A DNA stretch of 64,000 nt from positions 1 through 64,000 of the forward strand of contig JBEWZL010000278.1 in assembly GCA_045837725.1 (NCBI GenBank), written 5' to 3'. The notes beneath the pieces were generated by a model. That model did no database searches and was not told the origin of the DNA. It worked only from the letters and a program-made list of their open reading frames with translations. Shown piece by piece: positions 8,232 through 52,091 of this stretch. Origin of the DNA: Vermamoeba vermiformis (Eukaryota). The position numbers and the translations under genes were made by a program. The stretch's first letter is position 1. The number at the start of each line of letters is the position of its first letter.

Positions 8232-9561
8232 TCAATGCTCAATACTGTCACGCAAGCCTTGCAAGAGGCTTAAACGTTCTTTAGATGAGCGCGCAAGACT
8301 GTCAAGTAAGAAATAAAAATTTGTCATTTTCTCCTCTGCGGTTGGATGTGAGTACTTTTGAAATCTTGCAAACTGATTGGCACTATCGTACAAACGAACT
8401 CCATCATCTCCGATCAAATATTGAAGCTTAAGAACGGTATGCAGTCCTCGGATTGTAGAAGGAACGTAACCATCATCACTATCATTATGGAACTCATTTG
8501 AGTAGCCGAAATCTTCATACTTGTGCAGACGGATTAGCAGACAATTTTCTAAAGGTTAAGAAAATTTTCATTAATAATAAGGACTCAATTATTCGTCCGT
8601 GTTCGAGCAATACATTAACATGGATTGGTTATTATGATACTGTTTTAAGATAAATACTACGTACCAAATAGCTCGTATGTTTTAACGTAGTCCGGATCTG
8701 CTTCGATAATTTCCTTGACATTCGATTGGACAATATGCAAGTTGAGCAATACAGTCGGATAATTTAAGTCAAAATTGACGGCAGTTGACGGCCAGTGCTT
8801 GACCTCGTAACAAGTACTGTCGGTCAAAAATTTCGCTGCAAAACACTGACAAATCTGCTCGTCGCCGCGAAGCCAGACAATGACTGACGTAAAAGATTAG
8901 TATGATACTGTATATATTCGACAATGAGAACTTACTTTTTGGTACCTTGAAGTTTTGTAACGCCGATGCGAGAAGATTTTCTTCGTTGGTCATCTTTTGT
9001 TTCTGTTCTTGAACCTGCATATCAAGTTTACTACGCTCTTCTTTTACGAGAAATTCAAATTTTCGTCTTTCGAGTGAGTCTAAATCTGCGACCAAGCTAT
9101 TCAAAAAGGACGGCAACGGAAAAAACTCCGATGTCCGGAGAGGTCTGTATTCGCTTTCCAACGAGTAAACTTCGTCGTGCGAGATCTTTTTCAGTTTTTC
9201 TTCCAATGCACGTTTGACATCAAGCAATCGGTCGTTTGCTCGGACTTTCTTCTTTTCAATGACCATTACATTTGATAGCATTTCTCCGAGCATTTTCCAT
9301 CCTTCTTCATCATTGGCGGATATCCTCGCCCACATTGATTTCCATAGTCGTCTCGCATCCGATTTGACACTTGGATCTGCAATTATTTCAAACTTTGGCC
9401 ATAATGCATTCTCAACCTCGGATTGTTTTTGTTTGCCATTTGGGCTAAACGCCCTCACAACGCTGCCTTATTTAACAAATTTAGACTTCGAAAAACGAAC
9501 GAGTAACCAACTTACTAACCAAGCTGCGTAAGAGGCCCTTGTCATGTTTTTCATCCGTCAT
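8232..9561 (-). CDS. Hypothetical protein: coiled coil plus C-terminal alpha/beta (possibly TIR-like) domain; left member of head-to-head pair 1
   Basis: Four exons splice in frame: MTDEKHDKGLLRSLV/SSVVRAFSP...coiled coil...KVPK/IIVWLRGDEQ...YEVKHW...LLNLHIV...YELF/ENCLLIRLHK...RDSIEH*. Confidence 0.7.
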
Positions 9562-9610
9562 TAGCTGAGTTTGAGCGAGAGTACTGTTGTAACCAGAATT
9601 TAAGCTCGGT

Positions 9611-9876
9611 GTTGCAATAGGAGAAGATCAATTGTTTTTTAAAGTTGACTGTTTTAACACGGCGAAGACTGCACGTTTTTGATTTCAACTTTCATAGTTC
9701 ACACAAATGGATTTTCGTCCATTGAAAATATACCGTGTTGATTTGGTCTTGCACAACCGTTTGTTTGATCGTTTTTGATTTGCCGTGTCGAAATTGTGTC
9801 ACAATTCTCCAACACGGCGTGTTGAAACTTAGTTCGGTTTGGAAATTTAAATAATACCTGTTTCAACACGGCAGAA
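9611..9876. promoter_or_regulatory. Duplicated intergenic element, copy 1; putative bidirectional promoter with clustered AACACGG motifs
   Basis: Homologous in direct orientation to 16437-16713. AACACGG or CCGTGTT at 9656, 9733, 9811 and 9865, with variant CCGTGTC at 9783. Lies between divergent start codons at 9561(-) and 9951(+). Confidence 0.75.
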
Positions 9877-9950
9877 GATCTTTCGTCTCTCCTTAAATAC
9901 GCGTACCTATTTAATTCGACAATATCAAACACTCGTTGGACAACTGCAGG

Positions 9951-10863: not shown

Positions 10864-11859
10864 ACGTTTAACGATGTTCGAGAAGTTGGTCGGTGAGTCC
10901 CACGCTGAGACAGATCTTTCAGGCCAGTCCTGGTGCAGACCAAAGCCGCGAATACGCATCGATATGTCGTACATGCCACTCGTGCGACTGTCCAGACCAT
11001 TCCAGAACTCGCGCATGAAGAACTGCCATGGCGAATAATAGCCTTGACGAGCAGTGTGATGCACATCAGTGGCTCGTCGCCGCACACTTTGGACTTGAGC
11101 CGTGGCATCAGTGCTCGGTTCGGCTGGTTCCGTAATTACTTGGACTAGCCTACAGCTTAATGACATAGTTACCGGTTTGAGCGCGATGGCATCGGATCTT
11201 GTCCCTAATAGGCATACGTAGGCTGCGGATCAAAGTTTGATGCACACCACGGTACGAAGGCCCAAAGCATTGAACTGCCCAAAGATAAGCTGTTACACCC
11301 ACATCGGCCGTATCAAGCAGTTAGTTCGTCTCTCTCCTTAATCCGTAGCACGAAAAGTTCTTGATCCGAGATTTGTTCTGCAACTCAAAAATTACGTCCT
11401 TACAAAACTGAAAAATATGAGCCATTTTTCGGGTATTTTATCCAGTTTCTGAATGTAAATATCGCACCGCAAAACGCGGATCGCATGCTTGAGTTTCTCC
11501 AAAACGATAGAAACGTGATCAGAAGCTTGAGCGTATCACGCAACTATTTTTGTTTTGATAACTCGGGCACGTCATAAGACTTACTTGACAAGTGGAACGT
11601 TCTTTGGAAGATCCACTCCAGGCGATAAAAGTGCTGCATCCAACAAGTTAATCGTGATTACGATTAAATCATAAATTTGTGGATATAAATATGATAAATT
11701 TGTTGATAATCAAAGAATTTATGGCCAGTACGCCCTTTTACGCAACAAAGTTATCAATAAGATTTTTCTCGTGACTTTTCTCCGCATAATAATGTTAGGG
11801 AAAAAAATCGCATAAAAGTGACATACGTCATCATTATTTCTCTTTTATCAGTCATCATC

Positions 11860-13273
11860 ATGAACGCTAAACTCATTGCCGTCCTGCTTTTGGGCTGCTT
11901 GGCTCTTAGCGCTTTGGCCGATTTCCGCGTGCCTTTGCAAAAGATCAAGCGATCTGCCGCTGAAGAGCGTGCTCGCATTATGAACGCCAAGGAGCGTGCT
12001 ATTAACAAGTACCTCGGAGGCACTAACCCCGTCGACACCTTCAAGAACTACGATGATGTAAGTAAATCAGAATATTTTAATAATATCTTTTTTGCTAAAT
12101 CTGCAATCCAGGTTGAATACATTGGTAACGTTACCATCGGTACTCCCGGCCAATCTTTCCGTGTTGTCTTCGACACTGGTAGCGCCAACCTCTGGGTTCC
12201 TGGCGTTAGCTGCAATGACTACGGCTGCCAAGGCAAGGCCAAGTACAACTCAAAGAAGTCCTCCACCTACCAATCCAACGGTGAGTCCATCTCCATCCAA
12301 TACGGAACTGGCTCCATGGACGGTTTCTTGGACGTCGACAATGTTGGTATTGCTGGAACTACCGTTGCTGGTCAAGTTTTCGGTGAGGCCACTGATCTTG
12401 CTGACTTCTTCAACGTAAGTATTGACGCGTTTACGAAATCGAATATTATTACGGTCATAATTTTTAAATCAAGCTATAATAGAACCGCAAATCAGAGTTC
12501 CTAAATTTAAGCACAAATCTAATAATTTTTTTAGGGTCAACCTATGGACGGCATTCTCGGTTTGGCTTACCCCGCCATTGCTGCCGATTATGTTACCCCC
12601 GTCTTCGACGCTGATGATCAGCCAAAGCCTCGTCTCTCAACCCATCTTTGGTGTCTTCTTGGACTCCAACCCTGGTGATCGCCAATCTGCCATTGATTTC
12701 GGTGAGTAGCATTATTTTCCTTGCGCGCTATCGAATTTAATTCAACACTTATCTTCATTCAAGCTTAAGATACTATCGTCAGATTATTTTTAAAATTATG
12801 TTATTTTGACACTCGCATCTGCAGGAACCATCGATTCTACCAAGTTCACTGGTTCTCTCCAATACGAGCCTGTTGTTTCTCAAGACTACTGGACCGTCAA
12901 GTTGACTGAAGTCAGCGTCAACGGTAACGACGTCTCTGGCTGCCAAAATGGCGGATCTGGATGCCGTGCCATCGTCGACACTGGTACTTCTTTGATCATT
13001 GGCCCCACTGCCGCCGTCAACGCAATGAACATCAACGTTGACCCTGGCTGCAGCGGTATTGACAAATTGCCCGTTATCACCATCAAGATGAAGAAGTTGA
13101 CCTTCAAGATCCCTCCCAAGTACTACGTTATCAAGTCTGAGGGCCAATGCTTCTTTGGTATCCAAGGTGCTGATGGTTTGCCTTTCTGGATTTTGGGCGA
13201 CACCTTCATTCGTGCTTACTACACCCTCTTCGATCGTGGTCAAAACCAAATCGGTTTTGCCCCCGTCAAGTAA
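11860..13273 (+). CDS. Pepsin/cathepsin D-like aspartic protease (family A1), secreted; apparent +1 frameshift at 12610
   Basis: Signal peptide and propeptide, catalytic motifs VVFDTGS and AIVDTGTS, flap YGTGS, DGILGLAY and WILGDTFIR. An extra G at 12610 breaks VFD|LMISQSLV. Confidence 0.93.
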
Positions 13274-13545: not shown

Positions 13546-16362
13546 TTATGCGTGTTCAGGTTCGGCAATTGCAATGCACTCAGCACCTTCTTGCTTGAAC
13601 ATGATGTGCTTCACTCTAAAGTTGTCCAGTTGCTTCGGCTTAATCACGGCACCATGACACAAGAAGACAAAGCCAGTTGGTACTTCGATATCCTTGGTCA
13701 TTATCTCTTCAAGTTGACGCAACGTCATTGACTTTTCCACAATACAAGCGCCGAGGGACGACTTGTCCTTGTTGTTCAACACTACCAACGGAAACTGGTC
13801 CTTTAAAAATATCCGCATTAGCTTTCGTGAGTGCTGTTAAGTGTCACTTACGGAGGCCAGATCCGATGCTGTCAAGTCAGAAAGTACGAGGTCAGTCACG
13901 ACAATTGTGTCTTGGTTCACGAGGCAGGCTACAATTGCGGTGTTAGCTTCCTCTAGGAATGGCACAGGAGTGTTTTGAGGCTTCAAGAATTGAAAGCCTT
14001 TAAGTTCGATCTCTTCTTCAATAAGTTTTCTGAGGTCTGACAATGTGACGTGCTTCGGCTCGACCAGTACAGCACCCTCAGGCTTGCCATCCTTGATGAT
14101 AGTAAGAGTGTCGGGTACTGTCAAGTCAATGTCAACAGGGACTTGTTGAAGGGTTTTGGAGGCAGCACGTGGTATGACTGTGACGGTCCAGTAGCTGTAA
14201 GTGTTGTCTGATTTCGCGACACGTGTCAATGCAGTGCATTCTTCAGCGTTAACGGGAGTTTCAGACGCTTGTTGGTTGACAAAGACGAAGTCCTTGAGGC
14301 TCGGAATGCACTGCAAAATTCTTTCACGAATGACGTCTAATGTCGTCTCTGAGGCCCCATCAAAAGTAGCCGTTCCAATTACATCGCCTTTGGTATCTTC
14401 AACGATAATGTGCTTCTTCAAGTCGTTGGCGATCTTGGTGTTAGCAAATTGAATGGCAGCATGGAACGCGTTGAGTGCCAGCTTCTCACGGACCCACTCT
14501 GGTTTAGAATATTGACCAGTGTAGTTCATGACGGGGAAGATGTTTGTTAGCGGTATCTTCGTTCGAGTGCTGAACTCTTGGATGTGAGAGTCGATAATAC
14601 CAGTGTCAAAAATTGCTTCAAGTTTGCCGGTAATATCTGCTTCCGGAACCAAGTCAGGCTTAGTAAGAATCACAATGGGTTGGTATCCTTTGCTTGTCAT
14701 TCTGCCAACAATACGATTAATTTGATGACGATTAATTTGATGTGAAAAAATAAGGCAAAGATTTGAAACTCTTACTTGGCGAAGAATTTCTTCAACTCGT
14801 CAATGTGCGAATCCGTATAGATTGACGGCATTTCGTAGACAATGATTACTGCATGAACGCGATCACCGACAGTAGGCTCCTTGTTAAGCGATTTGAGCAG
14901 GTCTGAGTTCTCTTTGTAGCCGTCTCTGAGTGCGCCGTCAAGGAAAAACTCAAGCTCCTGGGACCACGAGTCACCACCTTTCCAGCCATACGTGTCGCAT
15001 AGTCTAATGGCGTTATTGCGATTGTTCTTCAAGAAACGTTTTCTGATCTCCAAGGTCACCGTCGTGATGTCGCTCTTGGTCAGTTGAGGCTCGTCATAAG
15101 ATCCGTTCATGATCGACCAGATGGTGTTGAAGAAGGCGGACTTGCCGTTGCCAATACGACCGAGAAGGGCAATGTTCAAGTAATCAATGCCAAAGTGCTT
15201 AAGCTCCGAGGGAACAGCGTAACATTCGAGCTTTTCGACCATTTTCCGAACTCTGTCTGGAAGATCTCGTCCTTGCAAAACAGCCGTTTCGGGATTTTCT
15301 GCAGTTGAAAATATTAATTGACTGTTTACGAAAACAAATGAATAGCTTGTTTTTACCTCGTAAAGTACGAATCTCAGTCACTTCTGACCAGCCAGTAACA
15401 GCAGTGCCATTGATTGCTTTGCCTCGAAGACTGTAAACGGAATTCGGCTCCAATCCAGTTGCGTAAAAGACATTCGACTCGGCAAATCCAAATGGAGTCC
15501 ATTTGTTGCTATTCTCCCGCAAGATTTCAATATCAACCCTTGTAAAGGGAGTGCTTGACACTATGTCAAACGATGCTTGTTTCGAACTGCGCGTTCGAGG
15601 GTTGATCTCAGGGGGACATCCTGGCTTGACGGACAGATACGAGACGACAAGACTCATCTCGCTAAAGTCATTGACGAAGATTGCGTGATCTGAGAGGGCC
15701 ATGACAGCTGTCTCGGTGTTGCCGCTTAAACCAACTCCGATCGAGATCAACGTGATATTTTTCTGCAGAAAACAGAAATTGTGTTATTTTTCAAAGTTCC
15801 GTGAAATTCACAACGTACCTGGGTCAAATTCGCTTGGATGGCTTGCGCACCGCTGACGTCGCCGTCAGTCATCAGCACAATAGTCTTGTGGCAATTGTTT
15901 CTATCATCAGCAGCGAACATATTGATACATGTTGTTAAAGCCAAGCCTGCGTTGGTCCCTCCTCTTCTTTGTGGTGTTGAAACAACGGCTGTGTTGAAAG
16001 CTAGTGCATCAGCAGTCAAGTGGCTAATCACGTAGACTCCGTTGTCAAATTGAAGCTATGGATATGAAGATATTAAGCAATATAATGAACTATAATAAGG
16101 CATTCTTACTCCTCCAACGCGGTAACTTGGATCCTCAACATTTTTCAGGCCTAAGTAGTTGACCAAAGTTCGGATGCAGAACTTCATCGTCTCCCATTGA
16201 TGAACTTGGACCGAACCCGAGCCATCCACCGCCTGAATATCATATAAGTACGAATGTCGAACTTCGCATACAACTTACAAATAAGATATCTTGCGGAGTA
16301 GCAAGGCCAGTGAATGCTCTCTGCAGTAGATCCGCTTTTTGCTCAACGGTAAGTCTGTTCAT
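13546..16362 (-). CDS. VWA - FN3 - IFI44-like P-loop GTPase - three ubiquitin-like repeats; left member of head-to-head pair 2
   Basis: VWA MIDAS DILFAVDGSGS, GGTN and VLMTDG. FN3 GLEPNSVYSLR..N...WS. GTPase G1 LLGRIGNGKS, G3 LCDTYG, DRVHAVIIV, G4 ILTKPD and IFPVMNY, as in the IFI44 family. Three C-terminal repeats of pattern G...TL..(I/L)R..I...F.F(L/V). Confidence 0.8.
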
Positions 16363-16436
16363 GCTAATCTACTAGGCTTAAATAAGTAGGGTGGTTGTAT
16401 TTAATACGTTGTGTTGTAATAGATCTTCGCGATTAA

Positions 16437-16713
16437 GTTGCAATAGAATAAGATTGAAATTGTTTTTAAAGTTGACTTTTTCCAACACGGCGAGGACTGC
16501 ACGTTTTTCATTTCAACTTTCACAGTTCACAAAAATGGGTTTTCGTCTATTGAAATTATACCGTGTTGATTTGGGTCTTGCACAACCGTTTGTTTGATCG
16601 TTTTTGATTTGCCGTGTTGAAATTTGTCACAATTCTCCAACACGGCGTGTTAGAAACTTTCATTTGGAAATATCGAACTAAGTTTCAATTAAACCTGTGT
16701 CAACACGGCAGAA
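16437..16713. promoter_or_regulatory. Duplicated intergenic element, copy 2; putative bidirectional promoter with clustered AACACGG motifs
   Basis: Homologous to 9611-9876. Motifs at 16484, 16561, 16612, 16639 and 16702, plus one more at 16734. Lies between divergent starts 16362(-) and 16790(+). Confidence 0.75.
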
Positions 16714-16789
16714 AATCATTCAATTGATTCATCAACACGGTAGGCGATTAAAGGTCTCAAAGTTTTAAACTGAAAAGAAGCAACAAACA

Positions 16790-17758
16790 ATGGCTGAGCA
16801 ACCGATTGAAACTACCCCTGTAGCGCCGCAAGACGAGTCTTCTAAAGCAAAAGAATTTGTACAATTATGGGTAGCAGAATCCTATACTTTGAACAGCAAT
16901 GACCTCACTACGTTCACTCTAGAATCGATAATCAAATATATGCATAATGGTTCTCGTTCGTACTTACAAAAAGTACCGGATCTAGAAAAATCTATTAAAG
17001 AAAATGCAAGGATGAAAGGCGAATTGAAAAGAAAGCAAGACTCCTTGCACGATAAACTAAACCGCATCGCTAAGGAGGTGGCTCTTATTGAAGAAGACGC
17101 AAATTCGTGCCAATCACAAGCAATTTCTAAGTGCAACGAAATTGACCGAAAAATTCAAGAGCAAAAAAACGAGTACGAAGAGAAATTACGCAAGGAAAAG
17201 ACGAAGCAGTTAGAAGAGGTCAAAAGACAAACAGAGCACTTGTATCGAGCTATGAAATGCGAGCAAATGAAGATGCTCGATCAATATCAAGAACAAATTG
17301 TGCAGGAAGAGAAGGAATGGCAAAACCTCGTTAAGTTAAGCGAATCCAAGAAAAAATGGCGCTCAATGGCCGAATTTAACATACCAGAGCGAGAAAGAGC
17401 AGATCAAATTAATGTGGAACGAAATAACGTTGAATTTAAATTGATCGTAACGGAATCGGAAGAGATCCTGGACGAAATAAAAATGCCAGAACTTACAGTA
17501 AAAGCCGAGGAGCCAGTCATAGCACCAGTGAAGTACATCAGTGTTAAGACCAAATCGGACGGTCAGCTGGTTGCCACAGTAGCCGTCAATCAGAGCGAAT
17601 TGTCAAGTTTGAAACTGGCCGGATTTAGAGCTCTCGCCAATGAGTTGCCGACCGACTTCACATTTCTATTCAAAGGAGCACCAATACGGCTTGGACAAGA
17701 ATCGAAATTTGCGTTGAAGCAGGTGCTGGATGGAGATAACGTTTGGATCAAGAACTGA
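16790..17758 (+). CDS. Intronless coiled-coil protein with C-terminal ubiquitin-like domain; right member of pair 2
   Basis: 322-aa ORF with a long E/K/Q-rich coiled coil. The C-terminal ISVKTKSDGQLVATVAV...LPTDFTFLFKGAPIRLGQESKF resembles repeat 3 of the partner (VPTGFVFLCHGAVIKPKQLDNF). Confidence 0.85.
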   Translation: MAEQPIETTPVAPQDESSKAKEFVQLWVAESYTLNSNDLTTFTLESIIKYMHNGSRSYLQKVPDLEKSIKENARMKGELKRKQDSLHDKLNRIAKEVALIEEDANSCQSQAISKCNEIDRKIQEQKNEYEEKLRKEKTKQLEEVKRQTEHLYRAMKCEQMKMLDQYQEQIVQEEKEWQNLVKLSESKKKWRSMAEFNIPERERADQINVERNNVEFKLIVTESEEILDEIKMPELTVKAEEPVIAPVKYISVKTKSDGQLVATVAVNQSELSSLKLAGFRALANELPTDFTFLFKGAPIRLGQESKFALKQVLDGDNVWIKN

Positions 17759-18236: not shown

Positions 18237-20179
18237 ATGGGTAAGAAAATCTTATCTTGTTCTAAAATTAATTAGAAACAACGTAAAATTATCAGTCCAC
18301 TCAAGTCCTACCTTTTGGATAACAAGAGCTGACCTTTTTTTTAAAATTATTCAACTTTTAAAATTATTCCTGCAGCTGATTTTAATATGCATCGGTTTAC
18401 TGCAGAGTCTTGGAATATTTTAGAAATTTTACCGCCGGAAGTAATGATTCTGGTATTTTCGAATCTGGAGCCTGAAGATATCGTATCATCCTTATCGGTT
18501 AGCAAGCTATGGAATGCATTACATAATGGATTTAATTGGAAAGAAGCATTTAAAGTTACTTTTGGAGAGTTACCAGAGTCGGTGGATCTTTCTCAAAAAT
18601 TAAATTGGCGAAAACTCGTATGATTGCTAATTCACAATACGCCTTAGATATATTATTAATTATTTTTATTCAAAATAGTTTTTCGACTGCAAAACTCTGT
18701 CGTCGCTCACCAAATCCAGGAGGAAATTTAAGCCGCTCCTCGTTTCTTTCGGCAATCCTAAGAAAACGATACCATTTAGCGTTGAATTGATGACGAAAGA
18801 CAATGTTCTTTACAAACATAATGACGGATTTTATTTGATTGATCTACGGTAAGAAATTCATCGGAGTTGATATTACGTAAACGACGTAGGAAATTAATTG
18901 GTACGTACATTTTTAGAGCATTAAAAGATGACCCGTCAATTTCCAAGGAGAAACTTATACCCTCAACGGCAGTACTGCCCTGGATCAAGGGTTTTTTCCA
19001 TTACAATACAACCAATCCTATTATCAAATTTTCTGGGAGTATTAAGTTAAGCTATCCAGGTTATTATCGAAATGTTTTTCTATTCTGGAACTTTAAAAAA
19101 GGAAGCAAAGCCCTGAATAGTATTATTTTGCCTTCCTCTTTTCCAGAAAGAGTTCACTCATACACGTCCCATCATTACGTCAATTCCAAATATTTTCTCG
19201 TAAGTAACTGATCTAACGCTTACGGATTATAATTATTAATTACCATCTTTGTTAGTGGAAGTGTCGTCAGTATGGATGCTTAATCGATACAACTAAGAGG
19301 TGCTATCATTATTGTAACTTTGAAAAACGAGGACAAACTTACGAACGAGAAAATTACCCAAGTGTCTGCGAGAACAAGGAGTACATTCTAATAATTATAT
19401 ATTATATTATTATTAACGTTTAATTTATTTACAGGAAGTGCGCAGTAATTGAAACTTGGGACGATTACGATTGGTATCCGTTTCTAAGCGAACAAGATCC
19501 GGATCTCATCGTTGGCATTCGAGTTAACAAAGATAAACAATACGAGCTAGTACAATCGCGTATCGGACAACAAAAAAACGTACAAGTGCTCTCTCAAGCT
19601 TCGGGATCTGCCATAATCCAGGTCGGATCCGAACACGTAATTAAGTCAAGAAGAAAGATCGTACGGCATTGGTTCTCGTTTGAAATCAACGCAGATCTAT
19701 ATTTTATCGACTTAATGGATACTAGTCGCAAAATTAAGATGTCGCTAGATATGTACGACTGGATCCCAAACGAAAGTAAGCAAAAATTTAAAAACTAAGA
19801 ATTCGAGATTAATTTTGACGGTCGATAGGCAAAGTAATATTGTGGAAGAAGAATATTATAATCATGTATGATTTAGAAAATGCTCTGAGGTGTTCCAAGA
19901 TGACCTTCAAAGATTCGGTCCTTGATTTTTCAATATTGCCTAGCCACGGTTTTATTGCTGTTCTGGAAGCCAATCGCAAATACGTTACGGTAAGCTTTTA
20001 ATACGACAATTTAATATGAAGGTTGTTTCTAAGCCGTTTTATAGATTTGTCATTTGGAAACAGCTATGAAAGGGCGATCGATTGACGTTTCAGAATACAA
20101 GCCTACTAAGATTACATTAGTCTCGGAAAAGCTGTTATTTATAACAAACGGCAGAGATTTACATTACTTGCCATTGTAA
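18237..20179 (+). CDS. F-box protein with beta-rich (possibly propeller) C-terminus
   Basis: M/ESWNILEILPPEVMILVFSNLEPEDIVSSLSVSKLWN is an F-box. Multi-exon; the last exon ends ...DLHYLPL* at 20179. Confidence 0.8.
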
Positions 20180-25148: not shown

Positions 25149-27929
25149 ATGATAATATGCGCTTTTGCAATATTATTTTAGCCATCCTTATTACCTGCGC
25201 GCTTTTAAGTTGCATCCAAGCGACAGTAACGTTTACTGGCGTTAACTTGGCTGGCGCGGAGTTTGGTAAGATTTATTAATACATTTCGCGTTAATTAACC
25301 AACGAATATTATTCATATATCAAGATTCTTCTGCTGTTTGGCCTACTACTGCAGATATGGATTATTTTGCATCAAAAGGAATGAATATTTTCCGAATCCC
25401 TTTCAAATGGGAGAGATTGCAAACATCCCTCGGGGGAGCGTTTGATACTACATATCTAAATCAATTAGATTCTGTCGTGAATTACGCAACCAACACCAAA
25501 AAGGTTTATGTGATTTTGGATGTGCACAAGTAAGCGAACGACATTAATTAAAGTTCAAAGCAGTATTTTCTAACTATATGTGCTTCATTACCTAGCTACG
25601 CACGTTACAACAGTCTTGTTATCGGAAACGGGATCACAAACGCGCAATTCGCCGATTTGTGGACTCGATTAGCCACCAAGTACAAAGCTAATGATAAAGT
25701 CGTAAGTATAAACGAGAGTGTAGTGAGTTCCCGAGATATTTTCAATCGGGTTACGAAGTCAACAACGATATACCCGATCTGGATCTAACCTCAGTTTTCA
25801 GATATTTGGTCTAATGAACGAACCGAAAGAGATGAAGAATGTGTAAGTAAAAACGGTCACAGTATAATTCTAATGACTGAAAGTGATTGGAAAGACGGAG
25901 CCCAAGCAGCAGTGAACGCGATCCGAGCAACCGGTGGGACGAACTACATCTTACTTCCAGGTAATACTTAAGCGCTGATAAATAGGTACTTACAAATATC
26001 TTCTAAACAACGTGATAGGCAATGGCTGGACTGGAGCTCACTCGTGGTTCCAAACATGGTACGACCAGGGCAGTCCGCAAACCTCCAACGCCGACACGAT
26101 GATTCAAGTGACTGATTCAGCCAACAAAATGATCTTCGAAGTGCATCAGTACTTTGGTAAGCTTATCCAGGAAAAATACAGTCAATTTCTAATTGTTATG
26201 CAGACAGTGGCTATGGTGGTACTTCGGCCACATGCCTCGCTCCAACTGTCGGTATGTCGACTGGTCAGAGCGAAGAAGAATTCAAACTGATTAATAGTTG
26301 CAGGAAAGGACAAGCTCGTTGATTTCACAAACTGGCTGAGACAGAACAACAGAAAGGGTTTCTTGGGCGAGTTCGGTGGATCTGAAAGTACGAACTGCTT
26401 TTCAGCCTTGACCGATGCTTTGCAATACATGCAAGACAATAGTGACGTTTGGTATGCGAATTTTGAAACGCTAGTTATTTAATTAACGTCTTAATCATCA
26501 GGGTTGGTTGGACTTACTGGGCAGCAGGTTCGATTTTTTTGGACATTTTGACACTTTTTGTTGACACGTGTCATTGACCGACAATTTGCAGGTAATGCAT
26601 GGCCAAGCGATTACATCTACACCCTTCAACCAAAGAACAACTATCAAACTGATCGTCCTCAACTCGCGTACCTGCTGCCGTACATTTCATCCGGTACGCC
26701 AGTTTCCATTCCGATGGCACCTGTCGCTGCGGTTGCACCTGTAGCTTCACCACCCGTTGGTAGTTGCACTCCTGGAACATCGGAAAATATCTTCACCGAC
26801 TCTATTCAAAGTGGCTGGGAGGATTGGTAAGTGCATCAACAATAATGACTCGTTATTAATGTTCATTAACAGGAGTTGGGCTGATACAAGAAATACAGCA
26901 GATACTTCTTTGAAGCGAACAGGAACGGCTTCGTACAGTTTCACTCCAACCAATTTCCAAGCAATTTTTTTCGCAAAAGCGACCAGTGGAACTTTCTCAA
27001 CATCGTCGTACAGCGGAGTTGAGTTCTATATCAACGGATCTCCTAACGGTAATACATACTCGTTTCCTAATCGAATGTTATTCTTACGCTTCACACAGGT
27101 GGTCAGCAGATCCGCGTCGGATTCAGAAAATCAGGTGACTCGGAGTACGGTACTCCAACCTACGTGAACATCAATAACTACATTGACGGCGCTACTTCCA
27201 TTGGCAATGTATGGCGACGAGTCTACGTGCCGTTCTCAGCGATGAACATTGGTCTTGGCGACACGTTGATGGGCGTCACTATTCAAGCAGTACGTAGAAC
27301 CATGATTGAGCTTGGTGATGGCTCGTAGTTGACGTTACTGTAGGACATTGCAAGCACACAAGCTAAAGTGTATCTGGACGACGTTAGATTGATTTGTGCT
27401 GGTGCTGCTTCTCCTGTCGCTACGCCGGTTTCCACTCCGGTGGCGACACCTGTCAAGCCTCCTACGGCAACGCCAGTTGCCACACCTGTCACTGCTCCTG
27501 TTGCGACACCCATTAGACCTCCTACTTCAACGCCAGTCGCCACAGCAGTCGCAGCTCCTGTCAAGTCTCCTACGGCAACACCAGTTGCTGTTCCTCTCGC
27601 TAGTACCAGTTGCTGCTCCCGTCAAGCCTCCGGCCACTACTCCAGTTACCATACCAGTAGCAGAACCAACTGCTACTCCCATCACCACACCAACGAGCGG
27701 ATCTGCACCAGTAGCAACACCATCAATCGATGCTCCTGTTAGCACCGAAGTCCCTGTGGCTAGTGCTGAGCCTAAAGCTGATGACACACCCGTTGAACCA
27801 ACGACCGATTCATCACCTGTCGCCTCTCCTGTTGCAGCCGGAAAGACGCCAATAGTATCTTCGATTACTTCCAGCGCCGCGAAATTATTGTATTCCAGTG
27901 CCATCGTTTGTACTTTCATTTTACTATAA
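25149..27929 (+). CDS. GH5 endoglucanase + CBM8-like module + long Pro/Thr/Ala/Val stalk + GPI/TM tail, copy 2; apparent +1 frameshift near 27602
   Basis: Same catalytic motifs and exon layout as copy 1. The PVATPV repeats switch frame at about 27602, where ORFs 27368-27742 and 27396-27929 overlap. Confidence 0.88.
27414..27840 (+). repeat. Coding low-complexity tandem repeat ([12 protein letters not shown]), mucin-like stalk
   Basis: Recurrent cctgtcaagcctcctacggcaac-type units encoding [11 protein letters not shown]. Confidence 0.8.
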
Positions 27930-29291
27930 ACATGAATTCCCTACGTCACTTTTTTTTTTGTAAACAAGAGACTGCAAGCGACTTATCGAGCGAGTTGGAT
28001 TCATAGTTTTGCAAATAATCAATACTGAGAACGTTTATGAGCGTGGACTGTAGCGTACGATTTGTATTTATTGACATTTATACAAAGTAAGTAAAAGTAC
28101 TTTGCTTGGTGATTACTTTCGTGTCTTAGCTCCTCTTTCTTTGCGAATGCGTGGCTCTTCGAAGTAATAATCAAAGCCAAATACTTTAGCAGACGCAGCG
28201 AGATGGGCGGAACCATATATTGCCCTTTGCTATTTATTCTAGTCTCTCATGGTAGTCAAAAAGATAGTTATATCTCATTTGAGGGAGGTGCAGCGAGCCC
28301 GACAAAGATAACATACAATTTCAATTCCGAGGCACTTTTTTTAGCGACCCTTAGACATTCTTCTCGCCCCCACAGTTTCAAACGCGGAACGCGCCAAGCA
28401 AGGATTAATCCCTCATTGTCTCGCCCAGTGAGCGTTGGGCCCAGCGGCGGTAGAGGTGACGGCGGCAGGGAGCGAATGATATTTGACGCAATATACTAAT
28501 TGCTTATTTTTGGCATTAGCCGGAAGTTGAACAGAAGGGGCTTCCAGCGTTGCAAAACCAATAGATTCAATTTTTCTGTGCCACATCGTCTGTTATAATA
28601 CTAAATTAATGCTATTAATTAATTGCAATCTCTGTAAGCTTTCGTTGTTACACTCTGGCACCGAATAAATCGCTGTTTTACAGGAATATATTTTTTAATT
28701 GACGTGTGGTTTGCTTTTTTGGGAGGCAGTACGTTCTAACAAAAATTACAACGGTCAATTTTAATTTTTCCTTGCACACGAAACAACGATCTTATCGGCG
28801 TTGCAATTGTTATCATTAGGTATTTTCATAAATACTTATAATTTTAGCAAGAGACTTTTTAATACATAACGATCACCAGATCTGATCGAGTTGAATTTTT
28901 AATTAATGTTTCAATTATCAATCAAAAAATATTGAACGATGAGAGGTAAGAATATTACTATTTTTCGTGGACAACTAATCTAATATTATTTAGCACAACG
29001 CTTGATTTTAATTGAGGAAGAAATAATTTGGATCCATAAAGTTTCCTTGCAAGGCCCAAAATCTTCGGTGTCGATAGCGTAGCGATTGGGCTAGCACGTA
29101 ATCTAGCGGGTCTAGTGTTGGTGATCCGAAGATAGCATCGCGATGCCAGAACGTCAATCAAAATTACATCAAAATTTCAAACGCTCCACAAAAATCACAT
29201 TGATTGCGTTGATTTTGCAATACAAAACGCCAAAATCTATTGATTTGTTTATTTTGTGCTTAATCAGAGACCGCGTTACAACAACAAAATA

Positions 29292-30536: not shown

Positions 30537-31160
30537 TTAGGCACTTGTTGTTGTTGCTTTACCTGTTGCAAACCATGTTCCGGGATATAATGCGTTGGCC
30601 CACTTTATGAGCATCGAGTCCAAGATTGCTGGAACCCATTTCTGTTGTGTCACGTGATAATATCGTGGCAGAGGCCTGCTGTTGAATTTTGCATCATCTA
30701 TATAGATATCTCTGATTGCCTTTGCTTCACTGAGTCGTTGAATTGCACAGGATCTGACAAAACAAGTGACACGTGTCAATAAAATTGCAAGCCGTTTGTG
30801 GCCAAGTTACGTTGTAAAATACTTACGATATATTGTTTCGCTGCATCGAGAGCATTTTGTCAATGAGAAGAAGAACGTTCTTGCGAAGTTGTTGTCTGAT
30901 CTTCGGCTCATTGAAACTGTCGAATATTGGAGGTCTTGAAGCTCCATTTTCGCTGGCAATTTTCCGAATAAAATCAGTTGAATATATTGTCCCAGAATTG
31001 ACGAAATCCGTGTCGAATAAATTCGCAAAATTTGGATCTTGCTCGATCAACGAACAACTTGCTGTTTAAAATAATTATTTCGAGGTCCGATAATAATAAA
31101 ATAAAGAAATGACGCCTTACCAACCGCAAGAAGCACTATTAACAATTTCAATTCGTTCAT
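30537..31160 (-). CDS. Small secreted protein with possible ADP-ribosyltransferase-like motif; 3' end uncertain or truncated
   Basis: MNELKLLIVLLAV/ASCSLIEQDPN...MQRNNI/...RYYHVTQQKWVPAILDSMLIKWANALYPGTWFAT. Two canonical introns. No convincing further exon. Confidence 0.5.
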
Positions 31161-43789: not shown

Positions 43790-45395
43790 ATGTCACGAAC
43801 ACCACGAAGAGCCAGCAAGCAGGTTGATTATGCTGCTTTTGGCGACGGTGAAGATGAAGACGCTTTGGATCTAAGCGCTGAGGACGCAGAGGACGAGGAA
43901 GTCAGGCCTAAGAAACGTGAAAAAAGAGAACCTAGCAAGAAAAAAGAAGATAATAAAAAACCTGCGAGCGTTATTATTGACGATAACGATGACGACGTTG
44001 TGCTAGTTGAAGATCGAGATGCCGACGACTTTGATCTCGGTCGGAGAATAATCAATAATATTGCGCAAAAAATTCCAGAAATTATTAAACCCAAGAAAAA
44101 GAACGTAATTGATGACGATGAAGTTATAAATTTAGAGGAAGACGATAACGAACCGGTAGTAACATTTAGAAATTTGCCTAAAATTGGCGGACAAACCGTA
44201 CGACCATCACCTGCCCCAGCTAAAGAATTATCACCTCGTGAACCGGTTGTAGAAAGTAAGTAGAAATTAATTCGTTATTTTTTTAAATTTTCTGGAAATT
44301 CGTGCCGTGCAATTCGCGCGGGAAACAACCAGCAGCCCTTTTATTGCTTATTTACGTTGTAGTATTTATTTTAAAAATTAACCTAAATTATTTCGATTTA
44401 GAGCAACCGACAAAGCGTGAACGAACACCACCGAAGAAACGGATCATCGATAGCGATAGCGACGATGATTTTAGCGGTGAAGGTAATTTTCACTATTCTA
44501 TTAACGAATGTTATATTAATTTCCATTTAGCTGATGGCGAATATGACGCTGATTTTGGGTTTGAAGAAGAAAGATCCAAGTCAAAAAAACGAAAGGCGGA
44601 GCCCAAAGAAAAGAAAGCGCCCACAAAGCGAGCAAAGCGTAATAAAGACGATGACGTGTCAGTATCAGAGTCGACTTCAACACGAAAAGAAGAAGTTCCA
44701 AAGCCAAAGCCTGTTTCAGTTGTAATTGAACCGGTCAAAGAAATTATTCCAGAAAGAAAGCCACAAACAGCGCCAGTGAAAGAAGTGGCTATTAAAGAAG
44801 TCAATAATAGCAGTAGCACTTCTAAGAAAAAAGAACCGTCAATAGAAAGTGATGAAGAAGAGGACAGATCCGTCTCGACATCCAACCAACCAGCGATTGA
44901 AACGAAACGAGATAAGAGAGCTTTAATTACTAGCGAAGCAAATAATCAATATGGTGGAAATAAGCAGACAGCAGCTAGCGCAAATGGCAATTCATCGCCT
45001 CCAAAGAAGAAAAATGAAAGCGATGAAGAAGTCACATCCGGTCCTTCCACGCCAATTAAGCGTAAGATTAATATGAGCAACGATTATTGTAACAATATTC
45101 TTATATTACTATTTAGCTAAACCAGTTATGCCCGCTTCAACCTCAGCTGCGCAATCGAAGCCGATCGTCAGCACCAGTTCACCGAAAAAGCCTGGTCTAT
45201 CAAGTAAGTCTTCTTCTCCCTATAATGAAAAAATTGATAATAGGTCCCGGCTATGATAGTATATTAATTGCGTTTCTATTTTTAGAAGCTAACGGAGAGC
45301 AGTCAAGCGGCATGAACCTAGGTCCATCACCTAGCCGAAGGCGCGTCGGTTTATCAAGAACTCAGCGCGTACCATCTTTGCACGGTGATAAATAG
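43790..45395 (+). CDS. RAD51AP1/NUCKS-family-like disordered nuclear protein, left arm
   Basis: N-terminus MSRTPRRASKQVDYAAFGD resembles NUCKS1/RAD51AP1 (M.RP.R..K.V.YSQF). Charged disordered middle. C-terminus RRRVGLSRTQRVPSLH resembles the RAD51AP1 RAD51-binding tail (LRLGLSR..RVKPLH). Confidence 0.7.
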
Positions 45396-45531
45396 TCACT
45401 CGAGCTATAGTATAGTGCTTGTATTGTAAATAAATTGTAAAAGTTGATTTTGTTGCGGAAATTTTGCTAGGCAAAGCCTCTCGCAAAATTTCGGCGTCTT
45501 GCTTTTATTTTTTGAATATAGAGATACACAA

Positions 45532-47713
45532 ATGGAAGAAACTGGCCACAAAAAGCTCGTTTGTGTTATTGTAGGCACCAACAGATCAGGCAAAACAACG
45601 ATTTTCAATTTATTGACCAGATCAGATCAAGCCCAGTCAAATGGAGAGATAATAATTCCAAAAAATATTACGTTATCGTAAGTATGAAATTAAGACCATT
45701 AAAATCGAAGCCTATTTAATTATTCATGAATAAAATTAAAATTGCAATTTTCCGGAACGGCCAGACTCAATCTCTATTGCCTCCGTCTATATTTTACTTA
45801 TTATATATTTAAAATAGGGAGCGTGAATTTCAAAGCACGAGCCAGTCTCCGTTTGGCACGCTTCCAACCGAGATCTTGAACAAGAGTAAGCTTATCAGAT
45901 TGAAGGGATCGTATTTTTATTAACTATTACAATTAGTATTTTATTTTATGGACAAACGTGATCTTCTCCGTTGTCTATCAGTTTGCAAATCATTTTCAAA
46001 ACTTGGCTCGACGGATTCTCTTTGGCGAGCTCATTTGAACGATTGGCTCGCATCCAATTCAATAGCAACACCTATGAAAATAATAGAAACGGCTCAATCC
46101 TTAAAAAAGCTGGTCAAGTAAGTCCTGGACAGAACTTTCCTTTTATGGTAAATCGCATCCAACCCATTTATTTCTAGGTGGCTGAATATTTCAGAAGGTG
46201 GAATGTATAGGACTAATGCACCTGATCTAGCAGATTTATTATTAGTGGATACATTGCCAGTCAATGTCGCGGTCTCTTATACAAAATACGAAAATTTCTC
46301 TCGTGTAATGATGGGCGCGTACGGCGTCGGAATTTTATGCGTAAATCCAAACGTCTTCAAGTCGTAAGTAATATACTTACTATATGAATAATCAATCTTA
46401 TCATTTTATAGCATGTCGATCGTGGATCTGATCCCAAAAATATTATCGGCGTTACATGCCTTTGCAGTGACCCAAGATCGAACGTTAATTATAGCAGTGA
46501 ATCGATTAGACGAAGTATCATTCGCGCAGCCAATGTTTAATAAGTTCAGAAGCTTCTTAGTCTCACTACTAAGCAGAGTAAGTCACCCTAGCTGTCACCG
46601 ACATCCGCTTTCCTTTTGACATAGAAACAATTAGTTACAAATATACAAGCTTTTAATACACTACATTCGATACTCTTAGGAATACTAGGATTATTATAGT
46701 TAGCTTCAATAGTCAGATCTGTTCCTAACATTTATTTTGTGTTCCTAGCACGGAGTTCCTAATTACTACATTGTACCTGTAAACGGAAAAACAGGCGAAA
46801 ATGTGGTCACTGAGTTCAATACTAGTGAGAAGAAGATGCCATGGTACAATGGTCCCTCAATTCAACAAATTCTCGCTGAAATATATAATACGAGGCAAGT
46901 ACCTTTAACTACCATTTTGGGTTCATATCATTATTTTTCCGTTATATTAATATGAAGGTGCGTATTACAAGGTTAGAGTCATGGAGCGAAAAAAATTTAA
47001 AAGCGGCTATTCGAACCATCAAAGTACGTAACCAAAAAAACAGTAGTCAGTTCAATAATATTATGTACTTATTTAATAATAGAGAACGACCATGACGAGC
47101 ATAATCACGTTTGTTTGCGTTCACAGCGGAGTTATTCGTACTGGCGATAATCTTTCAGTGGGAAGTAACGCAGTAACTGTCGAGTCCATCGAACAAGAGG
47201 GACGAATAGTAGACAGTGTTAGTGCTTCTGATTGGGCTGTGATTACCTTAAAAGGAAATACTGTCGATCAAATACAAGAAGTAAGTCTTATCCATAAAAG
47301 TTCGTTTGCTTCATGAAAACATTAACATGTGATCTTTAATTAGGGGGCGTTGATATCTTCCGTTGAAGATCCCATCGGAGAATTAAAGAAATTCCGCGTC
47401 ATGTTGCATACTTACCACGTGATCACCCCAAACGAAAAATACACCCTCATAACGTAAGTTCAAATATTTCCTTATTTGGTAATACTCACGAGACCGTTCA
47501 GATCTTCATTTGCAAAGAGGACAGTGCGAGTGGTATCGATTGCCAAAATAGGAATACATTCGAACCGATTCAGGGCAACACTGGAGATCGAGCGAGATTT
47601 CGCCGTGCCATTCGTTCAAGAACCAGCCAAGAAAATGGGCCGATTTGTGTTAGTCAGCATTGTGAAGAACGTCAAAATATTGAACAGTCCTATACTCATG
47701 GCTGCTGGTATAT
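45532..47713 (+). CDS. Divergent EF1A/HBS1-like GTPase with an F-box inserted after the P-loop; truncated by the gap (left arm)
   Basis: G1 VIVGTNRSGKTT, F-box FGTLPTEILNKIFYFMDKRDLLRCLSVCKSF...LW, G4-like IAVNRLD, IVPVNGKTGEN..MPWYNGPS, domain II VHSGVIRTGD..VESIE and domain III MGRFVL...AAG. Confidence 0.8.
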
Positions 47714-49955: not shown

Positions 49956-50091
49956 TTGTGTATCTCTATATTCAAAAAATAAAAGCAAGACGCCGAAATT
50001 TTGCGAGAGGCTTTGCCTAGCAAAATTTCCGCAACAAAATCAACTTTTACAATTTATTTACAATACAAGCACTATACTATAGCTCGAGTGA

Positions 50092-51675
50092 CTATTTATC
50101 ACCGTGCAAAGATGGTACGCGCTGAGTTCTTGATAAACCGACGCGCCTTCGGCTAGGTGATGGACCTAGGTTCATGCCGCTTGACTGCTCTCCGTTAGCT
50201 TCTAAAAATAGAAACGCAATTAATATACTATCATAGCCGGGACCTATTATCAATTTTTTCATTATAGGGAGAAGAAGACTTACTTGATAGACCAGGCTTT
50301 TTCGGTGAACTGGTGCTGACGATCGGCTTCGATTGTGCAGCTGAGGTTGAAGCGGGCATAGCTGGTTTGGCTAAATAGTAACATTAGAACATATTATTAC
50401 AATAATAATTAATCTTACGCTTAATTGGCGTGGAAGGACCGGATGTGACTTCTTCATCGCTTTCATTTTTCTTCTTTGGAGGCGATGAATTGCCATTTGC
50501 GCTAGCTGCTGTCTGCTTATTTCCACCATATTGATTATTTGCTTCGCTAGTAATTAAAGCTCTCTTATCTCGTTTCGTTTCAATCGCTGGTTGGTTGGAT
50601 GTCGAGACGGATCTGTCCTCTTCTTCATCACTTTCTATTGACGGTTCTTTTTTCTTAGAAGTGCTACTGCTATTATTGACTTCTTTAATAGCCACTTCTT
50701 TCACTGGCGCTGTTTGTGGCTTTCTTTCTGGAACAATTTCTTTGACTGGTTCAATTACGACTGAAACAGGCTTTGGTTTTGGAACTTCTTCTTTTCGTGT
50801 TGAAGTCGACTCTGATATTGACACGTCATCGTCTTTATTACGCTTTGCTCGCTTTGTGGGTGCTTTCTTTTCTTTGGGCTCCGCCTTTCGTTTCTTTGAC
50901 TTGGATCTTTCTTCTTCAAACCCAAAATCAGCGTCATATTCGCCATCAGCTAAATGAAATTAATATACCATTCGTTAATAGAATTAGTAATAATTACCTT
51001 CACCGCTAAAATCATCGTCGCTATCGATGATCCGTTTCTTCGGTGGTGTTCGTTCACGCTTTGTCGGTTGCTCTAAATCGAAATAATTTAGGTTAATTTT
51101 TAAAATAAATACTACAACGTAAATAAGCAATAAAAGGGCTGCTGGTTGTTTCCCGCGCGAATTGCACGGCACGAATTTCCAGAAAATTTAAAAAAATAAC
51201 GAATTAATTTCTACTTACTTTCTACAACCGGTTCACGAGGTGATAATTCTTTAGCTGGGGCAGGTGATGGTCGTACGGTTTGTCCGCCAATTTTAGGCAA
51301 ATTTCTAAATGTTACTACCGGTTCGTTATCGTCTTCCTCTAAATTTATAACTTCATCGTCATCAATTACGTTCTTTTTCTTGGGTTTAATAATTTCTGGA
51401 ATTTTTTGCGCAATATTATTGATTATTCTCCGACCGAGATCAAAGTCGTCGGCATCTCGATCTTCAACTAGCACAACGTCGTCATCGTTATCGTCAATAA
51501 TAACGCTCGCAGGTTTTTTATTATTTTCTTTTTTCTTGCTGGGTTCACGTTTCTTAGGCCTAACTTCGTCGTCCTCTGCATCCTCACCGCTTAGATCTAA
51601 AGCGTCTTCATCTTCACCGTCGCCAAAAGCAGCATAATCAACCTGCTTGCTGGCTCTTCGTGGTGTTCGTGACAT
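50092..51675 (-). CDS. RAD51AP1/NUCKS-family-like protein, right-arm copy
   Basis: Mirror of 43790-45395 with small in-frame indels (KKREKREPS vs KKREPS; DSDSDDDF vs DSDDDF). Confidence 0.7.
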
Positions 51676-52091
51676 GCGTAGATTTTAATTAACAGAATTA
51701 TTTTTTCTCCCGATCAAAATGCCAAAAAATCAAAATTAATAGTTAAATTGAACCGGACGCAAAAGAAAAGAATCAATTAATTTTCTACCCGGTTGGGGCG
51801 CTACTAGGAAACGGATCAAGATCGTAAGCTCGTGAAGCTTCACCTTTGTGGATGTAGCACGTCCCATGTATCAATTTTCTCCTCCCTAAAGCTCAGTACC
51901 GTTCATGGAACGCAGTGCGTGGTCATCTTGTACCATGTGATTTATCGAATGGGACTTTAGATTAATTAAAGAACTCCGCGAATCACCTCGACAAACTGTC
52001 GATTTGACAAAAAAGGCAGAAAGGAAAATTACAAGTTTCGGTCACAAGCTTTTTGTCCCGTGATTCAAATAGTGTAACATACAAGAAACTT

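Follow-up and report, generated by a model that had tools for sequence, protein, structure and literature searches.

A stretch of 64,000 nucleotides of Vermamoeba vermiformis DNA (NCBI GenBank assembly GCA_045837725.1, contig JBEWZL010000278.1, positions 1 to 64,000 of the forward strand; hereafter the window) carries a pair of divergently oriented genes, here called gene A and gene B, which together occupy 13546-17758, exactly from the stop of the one to the stop of the other. With a probability that we put at about 0.55, gene A encodes a cytosolic, IFI44-like multidomain GTPase from a protist subfamily in which a VWA-FN3 head takes the place of the TLDc domain, and its product acts as a nucleotide-switched scaffold with a tail of ubiquitin-like domains (Ubls), for which gene B provides a candidate co-factor.

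The gene A model is coherent at the level of both DNA and RNA. All six introns are of the GT-AG type and only 46-74 nt long, and removing them leaves an uninterrupted reading frame of 825 amino acids; because short introns interrupt the open reading frames (ORFs), the window is eukaryotic. Two homologues, P0001 and P0002, are collinear with the predicted protein over every exon junction in the alignment. RNA-seq contigs from the public run X5 contain joints at five of the six predicted introns, each within one base of the prediction (14701/14776, 15298/15357, 15762/15820, 16056/16111 and 16231/16278). These contigs are 95-99% identical to the window and therefore come from a close relative; they gave no coverage of intron 6, exon 7 or gene B. 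A crude Kyte-Doolittle scan of both gene products detects no hydrophobic N-terminus and no stretch that could plausibly span a membrane, from which a cytosolic location of the gene A product seems probable. The initial annotation of this DNA, which had described the domain order VWA, FN3, G domain and three repeats and had noted no signal peptide, is borne out on these counts by the assembled exons, the RNA joints, the hydropathy scan, Pfam and the structural models described below. A tblastn search of the remainder of the window found no paralogue of either gene, returning for the gene A P-loop region only weak matches at 11481-11609 (- strand, E 0.24) and 30917-31009 (+ strand, E 4.9), which may represent other P-loop genes or chance.

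The central domain of the gene A product carries the motifs of a TRAFAC P-loop GTPase: G1 (GRIGNGKS, residues 330-337), G3 (DTYG, 385-388) and G4 (TKPD, 471-474), the same three that had been picked out at first reading, agree with the class patterns GxxxxGK[ST], DxxG and [NT]KxD, and Pfam recognizes MMR_HSR1 in the domain (E 3.8e-5). Relatives were collected with phmmer from 1.84 billion representative proteins, the query being exon 5 (173 amino acids, reaching from G1 almost to G4); 192 matches had E<=1e-3, and for 26 of these E was <=1e-10. The G1-region pattern G..x.GK[ST]..x[N..][ST] was found in 116 of the 150 matches listed, and across 112 relatives G1, the G2 threonine and G3 are each at least 90% conserved. 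We scanned 99 of the 150 listed matches with Pfam, leaving aside short fragments and some of the weakest; 61 of them contained MMR_HSR1, 31 TLDc, 12 VWA and 6 fn3. Names were looked up for 20 matches, and those that had names included 'interferon-induced protein 44-like' (in Mercenaria, and in a UniRef cluster from Alosa) and a bivalve protein with several G domains. The VWA-type relatives include a Nematostelium gracile transcriptome entry (P0068, EukProt), an MMETSP transcript (P0023) and JGI or Logan contigs. The architecture of gene A itself recurs in P0001, P0068 and P0023 and in P0002, a Physarum polycephalum transcript encoding 825 amino acids with 40% identity. When the G-domain part of P0002 was used to query the ESM Atlas, the top cluster was 'interferon-induced protein 44-like' (score 0.96), which we take as an agreeing lead rather than as independent proof. 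In several animal relatives (P0005, P0011, P0017 and P0101), among them proteins of a freshwater mussel and a shad, two or three IFI44-like G domains follow one another within a single protein.

In structure, the G domain of an AlphaFold2 (AF2) model of P0001 has as its neighbours members of the IRG (Irga6/IIGP1, Irgb10), GIMAP (GIMAP2/7), Toc34 and mitofusin groups (Foldseek E 1e-6 to 1e-5). These are dimerizing TRAFAC GTPases, many of them immune. The family of gene A differs from them in sequence, however: P0001 had no match among solved PDB chains at E<=0.01, and the Pfam models AIG1, IIGP and Septin all scored under their cut-offs on exon 5 of gene A.

To place gene A within this set, we made a fast maximum-likelihood tree from 95 G domains, unrooted and without an outgroup, leaving out rows with fewer than 190 profile positions and near-duplicate cluster members. 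The tree divides into a side of 29 rows, on which gene A lies, with 14 of the 15 VWA-group rows and no TLDc-group row at all, and a side of 66 rows, which holds all 30 TLDc-group rows together with a single, long-branched VWA-group row (P0043). Gene A groups with P0001 (support 98) and next with P0002 (support 100). Because VWA-bearing proteins stand opposite all of the TLDc-bearing ones, gene A is better called IFI44-like than an IFI44 orthologue, and by sequence it appears to belong to a distinct, sister-type, VWA-bearing subfamily that is not nested within IFI44. Two statements of the initial annotation thus need to be narrowed. That the protein is an IFI44-like GTPase holds in so far as its nearest G-domain relatives are IFI44-type by phmmer, by name and by the presence of TLDc in 31 of 99, but not in the sense of a position among the TLDc proteins on the unrooted tree; and the architecture described as unusual is real in its domain order but is no one-off, VWA being found in 12 of the 99 relatives, Physarum and Nematostelium among them. 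The VWA-FN3-G-Ubl arrangement marks out a small family, with members in Amoebozoa (Physarum, Nematostelium) as well as in other protists.

The head of the protein consists of a VWA domain followed by an FN3 domain. Pfam matches VWA/VWA_2 on exons 2-3, with E 5e-7 for VWA_2 and E 3.7e-5 for VWA on exon 3, and the metal-ion-dependent adhesion site (MIDAS), read off the translation as D31-G-S33-G-S35, T103 and D133, is complete, as had been claimed for it, with the same residues kept in the family consensus. The FN3 domain that had also been claimed is faint in exon 4 by Pfam (fn3, E 0.056, under its cut-off) and emerges from the AF2 model of P0001, which is 53% identical to gene A over 731 aligned positions and equally so in the part that corresponds to exon 4. 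In that model (mean predicted local distance difference test score, pLDDT, 78) residues 121-201 form a beta-sandwich with pLDDT >90 that matches solved FN3 domains in Foldseek with target-normalized template modelling (TM) scores of 0.75-0.82 (E about 1e-6). No exon of gene A has a Pfam match to TLD. As was originally suggested, the VWA-FN3 head sits in the slot held by TLDc in IFI44-type relatives, where it may serve as the sensor proposed at the same time.

Downstream of the G domain, the protein ends in three repeats of about 80 amino acids. Searching the post-G-domain tails of 31 representatives with jackhmmer, from any single repeat, recovers all three repeats in both gene A and P0001, and repeat-like domains are also found in P0002, P0010, P0043, P0098, P0021, P0041, P0051 and P0100; the second and third repeats align with a pairwise Smith-Waterman z of 6.3. 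Profile matches to this domain occur in 9 of the 29 VWA-side rows of the tree versus 1 of the 66 TLDc-side rows, so the tail is a trait of the VWA-side subfamily, and it is present as well in relatives that have no VWA domain (e.g. P0021, P0041). In this subfamily the G domain often precedes one to three Ubls of a non-conjugatable kind.

The fold of the repeats was read from an AF2 model of the window's own repeats 1 and 2 (197 amino acids, 18-row alignment, mean pLDDT 72), both of which have the order beta-beta-alpha-beta-(alpha)-beta. A Foldseek search of the PDB with this model gave 26 matches at E<=1e-3, headed by linear di-, tri- and tetra-ubiquitin (best E 5.3e-5) in alignments that cover both repeats, and just above that threshold came ISG15, the chicken OASL tandem Ubl, FAT10 and the Ubls of USP7. 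Using VIA-align against representatives, Z reached 7.2 for ubiquitin versus repeat 2, with a root-mean-square deviation (rmsd) of 2.7 A over 71 residues, and nearly all of the best 50 rows are ubiquitin-like or other beta-grasp proteins by title, two being of PB1 type (1oey and the Par3 N-terminal domain, NTD). A VIA-align Z of 7-8 is by itself middling; it is because the two fold searches agree and the match list is uniform that repeats 1 and 2 are identified as ubiquitin-like beta-grasp domains. Repeat 3, for which the P0001 model has pLDDT <50, is a homologue of these two by profile, so that the beta-grasp identity first put forward for the repeats stands for two of them by model and for the third by homology. 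The family is novel in sequence to the extent that no Pfam Ubl model recognizes any of the gene A repeats; exon 6 matched no Pfam family at E<=1, and exon 7 gave only sub-threshold hits to CX (0.03) and DUF7138 (0.046). Doublecortin-type and RA-type beta-grasp folds were considered for the repeats and set aside, neither having a Pfam match and no rows of such folds being singled out by the fold searches.

Two further features of the tail bear on how it is used. The C-termini of gene A (...AEPEHA) and gene B (...VWIKN) both lack Gly-Gly, and these Ubls are therefore built-in domains rather than modifiers. In addition, intron 6 (13800/13852) falls at the boundary of repeats 2 and 3, so that exon 7 amounts to exactly one Ubl and hence to a shuffling-ready unit; it is also the repeat most like the domain of gene B.

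Gene B, whose ATG lies 428 bp from that of gene A in a head-to-head arrangement, encodes a protein with an N-terminal region, a charged middle and a C-terminal domain resembling the gene A repeats. Over the 145 amino acids of the middle region, E, K, Q and R make up 48% of residues, with two prolines and one glycine, a composition that suggests a coiled coil. Repeat 3 and the gene B C-terminus align with a Smith-Waterman z of 8.4, a value as high as which occurred in 0 of 300 shuffles. Repeat profiles trained without gene B give 12.4-17.5 bits for its residues 273-317 (E 7e-6 to 2e-7 with the database size set to 1), where none of 1000 shuffles reached its score and the shuffle maximum was 6.9; hhalign pairs the domain with the repeats at 93.6% probability (E 2.2e-7, 61 columns), and a jackhmmer search seeded from gene B includes repeat 3 of gene A as its first target. 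An earlier MAFFT-based profile of nine repeats had given gene B only E 0.015 and is superseded by the jackhmmer profiles. The gene B C-terminus is thus of one domain family with the gene A repeats, and the relationship proposed at the outset between the partner's C-terminus and the repeats is upheld by these comparisons. Pfam found nothing in this C-terminus, gene B had no match among PDB sequences at E<=1, and the ESM Atlas returned nothing above 0.79; one Atlas cluster at 0.76, with Pfam ubiquitin on 29% of its members, is a lead only. An orthologue of gene B that is 89% identical (P0003) covers its first 192 amino acids.

The pairing of the two genes was also sought outside the window. In metagenome contigs, 207 matches to a VWA pattern and 592 to a G-domain pattern were examined for a relative's A-B locus, none of which was confirmed by tblastn. 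Complex predictions with repeats 1-2 and repeat 3 of gene A, and with full-length gene B as the partner, gave a score of 0.17 and a mark of 0.34, a result that weighs neither way.

The spacer between the two genes contains six of the window's 11 exact CCGTGTTG/CAACACGG sites, where 1.0 is expected for the whole window and 0 of 100 shuffles reached 11. They belong to a module that lies 66-69 bp from both ATGs and that recurs 7 kb away, at 9604-9886, in the same orientation and with 239 of 277 aligned bases identical (86%). The second copy has three exact and four one-mismatch CCGTGTTG sites and is likewise flanked by divergent ORFs, whose ATGs are 50-70 bp away from its ends; the ORFs of this second pair matched no Pfam family. 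The arrangement fits a compact bidirectional promoter used twice, which would make the two gene pairs a shared regulon. Taken together, adjacency, a shared domain and the 290-bp bidirectional promoter module link gene B to gene A and would make it the prime candidate co-factor. The positions of all of these features are given in Table 1.

Table 1. Positions in the window of genes A and B, their predicted domains and the associated promoter modules
Feature	Position	Strand	Details
Gene A	13546..16362	-	7 exons, 825 aa, VWA-FN3-GTPase-Ubl x3
Gene A exons	16362-16279, 16232-16110, 16055-15819, 15762-15357, 15298-14776, 14701-13852, 13800-13546	-	
VWA domain	15637..16290	-	About aa 25-190, exons 1-4; MIDAS D31xS33xS35, T103, D133
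FN3 domain	15358..15624	-	About aa 195-283, exon 4
IFI44-like P-loop GTPase domain	14425..15197	-	About aa 318-550; exons 5-6, intron 5 inside
Ubl repeat 1	14167..14418	-	aa 553-636; model pLDDT about 46-85
Ubl repeat 2	13882..14145	-	aa 644-731; model pLDDT about 90
Ubl repeat 3 (predicted)	13549..13800	-	aa 742-825, whole of exon 7; by homology
Putative bidirectional promoter module, A-B	16431..16724	.	About 290 bp, 6 exact CCGTGTTG/CAACACGG 8-mers
Gene B	16790..17758	+	Single exon, 969-nt intact ORF, 322 aa
Charged middle of gene B	16970..17404	+	aa 61-205, presumably helical or coiled-coil
C-terminal Ubl of gene B (predicted)	17528..17755	+	aa 247-322, about 76 aa
ORF flanking second module, left	ATG near 9555, into ORF 8769-9467	-	
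ORFs flanking second module, right	ATG 9951, into ORFs up to 10863	+	

In the working that we propose for this system, the VWA-FN3 head would bind a protein ligand through the metal site of its MIDAS, and the G domain would serve as a nucleotide-dependent switch or dimerizer, as its IRG and GIMAP neighbours do. The Ubl tail would then form a docking platform that recruits other proteins in the manner of the tandem Ubls of OASL and ISG15. Gene B, consisting of a charged helical region and one Ubl and divergently transcribed from the shared module, would be the first candidate for a co-factor, and the two genes may be co-regulated and their products may cooperate.

Several observations weigh against this picture of a switched scaffold with a dedicated co-factor. 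The split between the VWA and TLDc sides of the G-domain tree has an SH-aLRT (Shimodaira-Hasegawa-like approximate likelihood ratio test) support of 87, under the 95 mark, on a tree that is unrooted. The assignment of FN3 in gene A depends on the model of its homologue P0001, and repeat 3 and the gene B domain are without a confident structure of their own. A word-indexed search found no relative of gene B beyond P0003, a close one, and gene B is absent from the X5 contigs that carry gene A; the raw-read RNA runs X19-X21 had 0 reads on the stretch at 95% likeness, which we rate as no test and from which nothing is concluded. The 290-bp module could be a repeat element instead of a regulatory unit. 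Finally, any immune or stress role would be attributed by analogy to IFI44, OASL and ISG15, and the mechanism of IFI44 is itself poorly known.

The first alternative is that genes A and B are mere neighbours, the Ubl of gene B being a local duplicate of exon 7 and gene A a housekeeping trafficking or cytoskeletal GTPase with no role in defence. The equivalence of exon 7 to repeat 3, as a unit ready for shuffling, speaks for this reading, as do the failure to see gene B in RNA contigs that carry gene A, an expression record that consists of spliced RNA in one run (X5), and the occurrence of the family in free-living protists. Against it, gene B is intact over 322 codons and has an 89%-identical orthologue, six copies of one 8-mer stand in a module placed 66-69 bp from both ATGs, and the nearest named relatives of the G domain are interferon-induced. 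We consider this explanation unlikely.

A more specific proposal, which goes back to the initial annotation and holds that the Ubl repeats of gene A and the Ubl of gene B bind homotypically, head to tail in the way of PB1 or DIX domains, and so build A-B hetero-oligomers or polymers, draws on the closeness of the gene B domain to repeat 3 (z 8.4, and the first jackhmmer inclusion), on the divergence of the two genes about a shared promoter module, and on the fold search, where the PB1 heterodimer chain 1oey_J matches repeat 1 with Z 5.6 and the PB1-like Par3 NTD is also among the rows (Z 5.4). PB1/DIX-type modules resemble the repeats in being beta-grasp folds, but they make up a minority of the matches (2 of the 50 best VIA-align rows), while the top rows and all listed Foldseek matches at E<1e-3 are ubiquitin or Ubls proper; the likeness is at fold level only, with no PB1 match in Pfam, and two domains may share an ancestor without binding one another. 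Homotypic assembly is accordingly a doubtful prospect in our view.

In a broader version of the preferred reading, the locus would be an amoebozoan-type, cell-autonomous defence or stress module in which a VWA-FN3 sensor is joined to an IFI44-like switch and to a triple-Ubl, polyubiquitin-like scaffold, which a co-expressed adaptor with a coiled coil and a Ubl (gene B) reads or extends, with both genes under an inducible bidirectional CCGTGTTG-repeat promoter common to the second pair 7 kb away. This full chain of assumptions we hold to be improbable as a whole. Very improbable is the idea that the tail mimics a linear ubiquitin chain, extended by the gene B Ubl and read by a gene B dimer as the UBAN coiled coils of NEMO, ABIN and optineurin read linear di-ubiquitin: the best Foldseek matches of repeats 1-2 are indeed linear ubiquitin chains, several of which have UBAN coiled coils in the solved structure, and the charged middle of gene B contains hardly any proline or glycine, but linear-chain matches are expected from any two tandem beta-grasp domains, the rmsd across both repeats is 12-16 A and their relative orientation is therefore not matched to linear ubiquitin, and no solved protein is detectably similar to gene B, whose coiled coil is presumed from composition.

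Comparison with known systems helps to delimit the switched, Ubl-tailed scaffold that we favour. IFI44 and IFI44L rank with the animal genes that interferon induces most strongly, and their mechanism is poorly understood. They resemble gene A in having a G domain of the same group, as its nearest named relatives, and in placing one large domain before it; they differ in that the front domain is TLDc in the animal proteins and VWA-FN3 in gene A, in the C-terminal Ubl tail that gene A carries, and in falling on the opposite side of the unrooted G-domain tree. The relatives of gene A are found in Amoebozoa and other protists, whereas IFI44 and IFI44L are found in animals. IFI44 is reported to interact with FKBP5 and to dampen the antiviral response (PMC6712396).

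The tail finds its closest parallel in OASL and ISG15, which likewise have tandem Ubls that are not ubiquitin itself, those of OASL following, on the C-terminal side, a domain that handles nucleotides; the fold searches with the repeat 1-2 model returned the chicken OASL tandem Ubl (7sbi_B) as well as ISG15 entries. The Ubls of OASL act as a polyubiquitin mimic. The likeness is at the level of fold only, with no Pfam ubiquitin match in gene A and 9-15% identity in the structural alignments, and the number of Ubls differs, three in gene A versus two in OASL and ISG15. As gene A has no C-terminal Gly-Gly, conjugation of the ISG15 type is excluded.

An aspartyl protease gene of eukaryotic type (Pfam Asp, E about 1e-35, in two ORF pieces) lies tail to tail with gene A at 11761-13273 on the + strand, and an ORF with an F-box-like domain (E 1.8e-9) is found at 18345-18623 (+), about 600 bp downstream of gene B. 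Composition departs from the rest at 26001-28000, where GC is 0.47 versus about 0.38 elsewhere, and in the AT skew of 44001-46000 (+0.14) and 50001-52000 (-0.16). Rfam and tRNA scans of the window returned nothing.

Each of the parts described here, VWA, FN3, the IFI44-like G domain and Ubl, is known already. What is new is their combination, its occurrence in Amoebozoa and other protists, a Ubl family that is novel in sequence, and a neighbouring gene that shares this Ubl. We found no description of the architecture in the full-text literature on IFI44 with amoebozoan, protist or vWA/Ubl links, a body of text that leaves most subscription journals and supplements outside its scope, so that this is not proof of absence.

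The protist subfamily retains the type of G domain seen in IFI44 but exchanges the front domain (VWA-FN3 for TLDc) and adds Ubls, which suggests a portable switch, one that evolution has joined to varied sensors and outputs. The slime-mould relatives may offer a tractable non-animal system in which to study this switch. A Ubl tail next to a neighbouring gene with the same Ubl makes a concrete and testable pairing, and the promoter module with its repeated 8-mer would give a handle on regulation. If the broader reading as a defence module were true, it would mean that the IFI44-type G domain and Ubl tails like those of OASL and ISG15 were both in use in immune-type proteins before, or outside, the animals.

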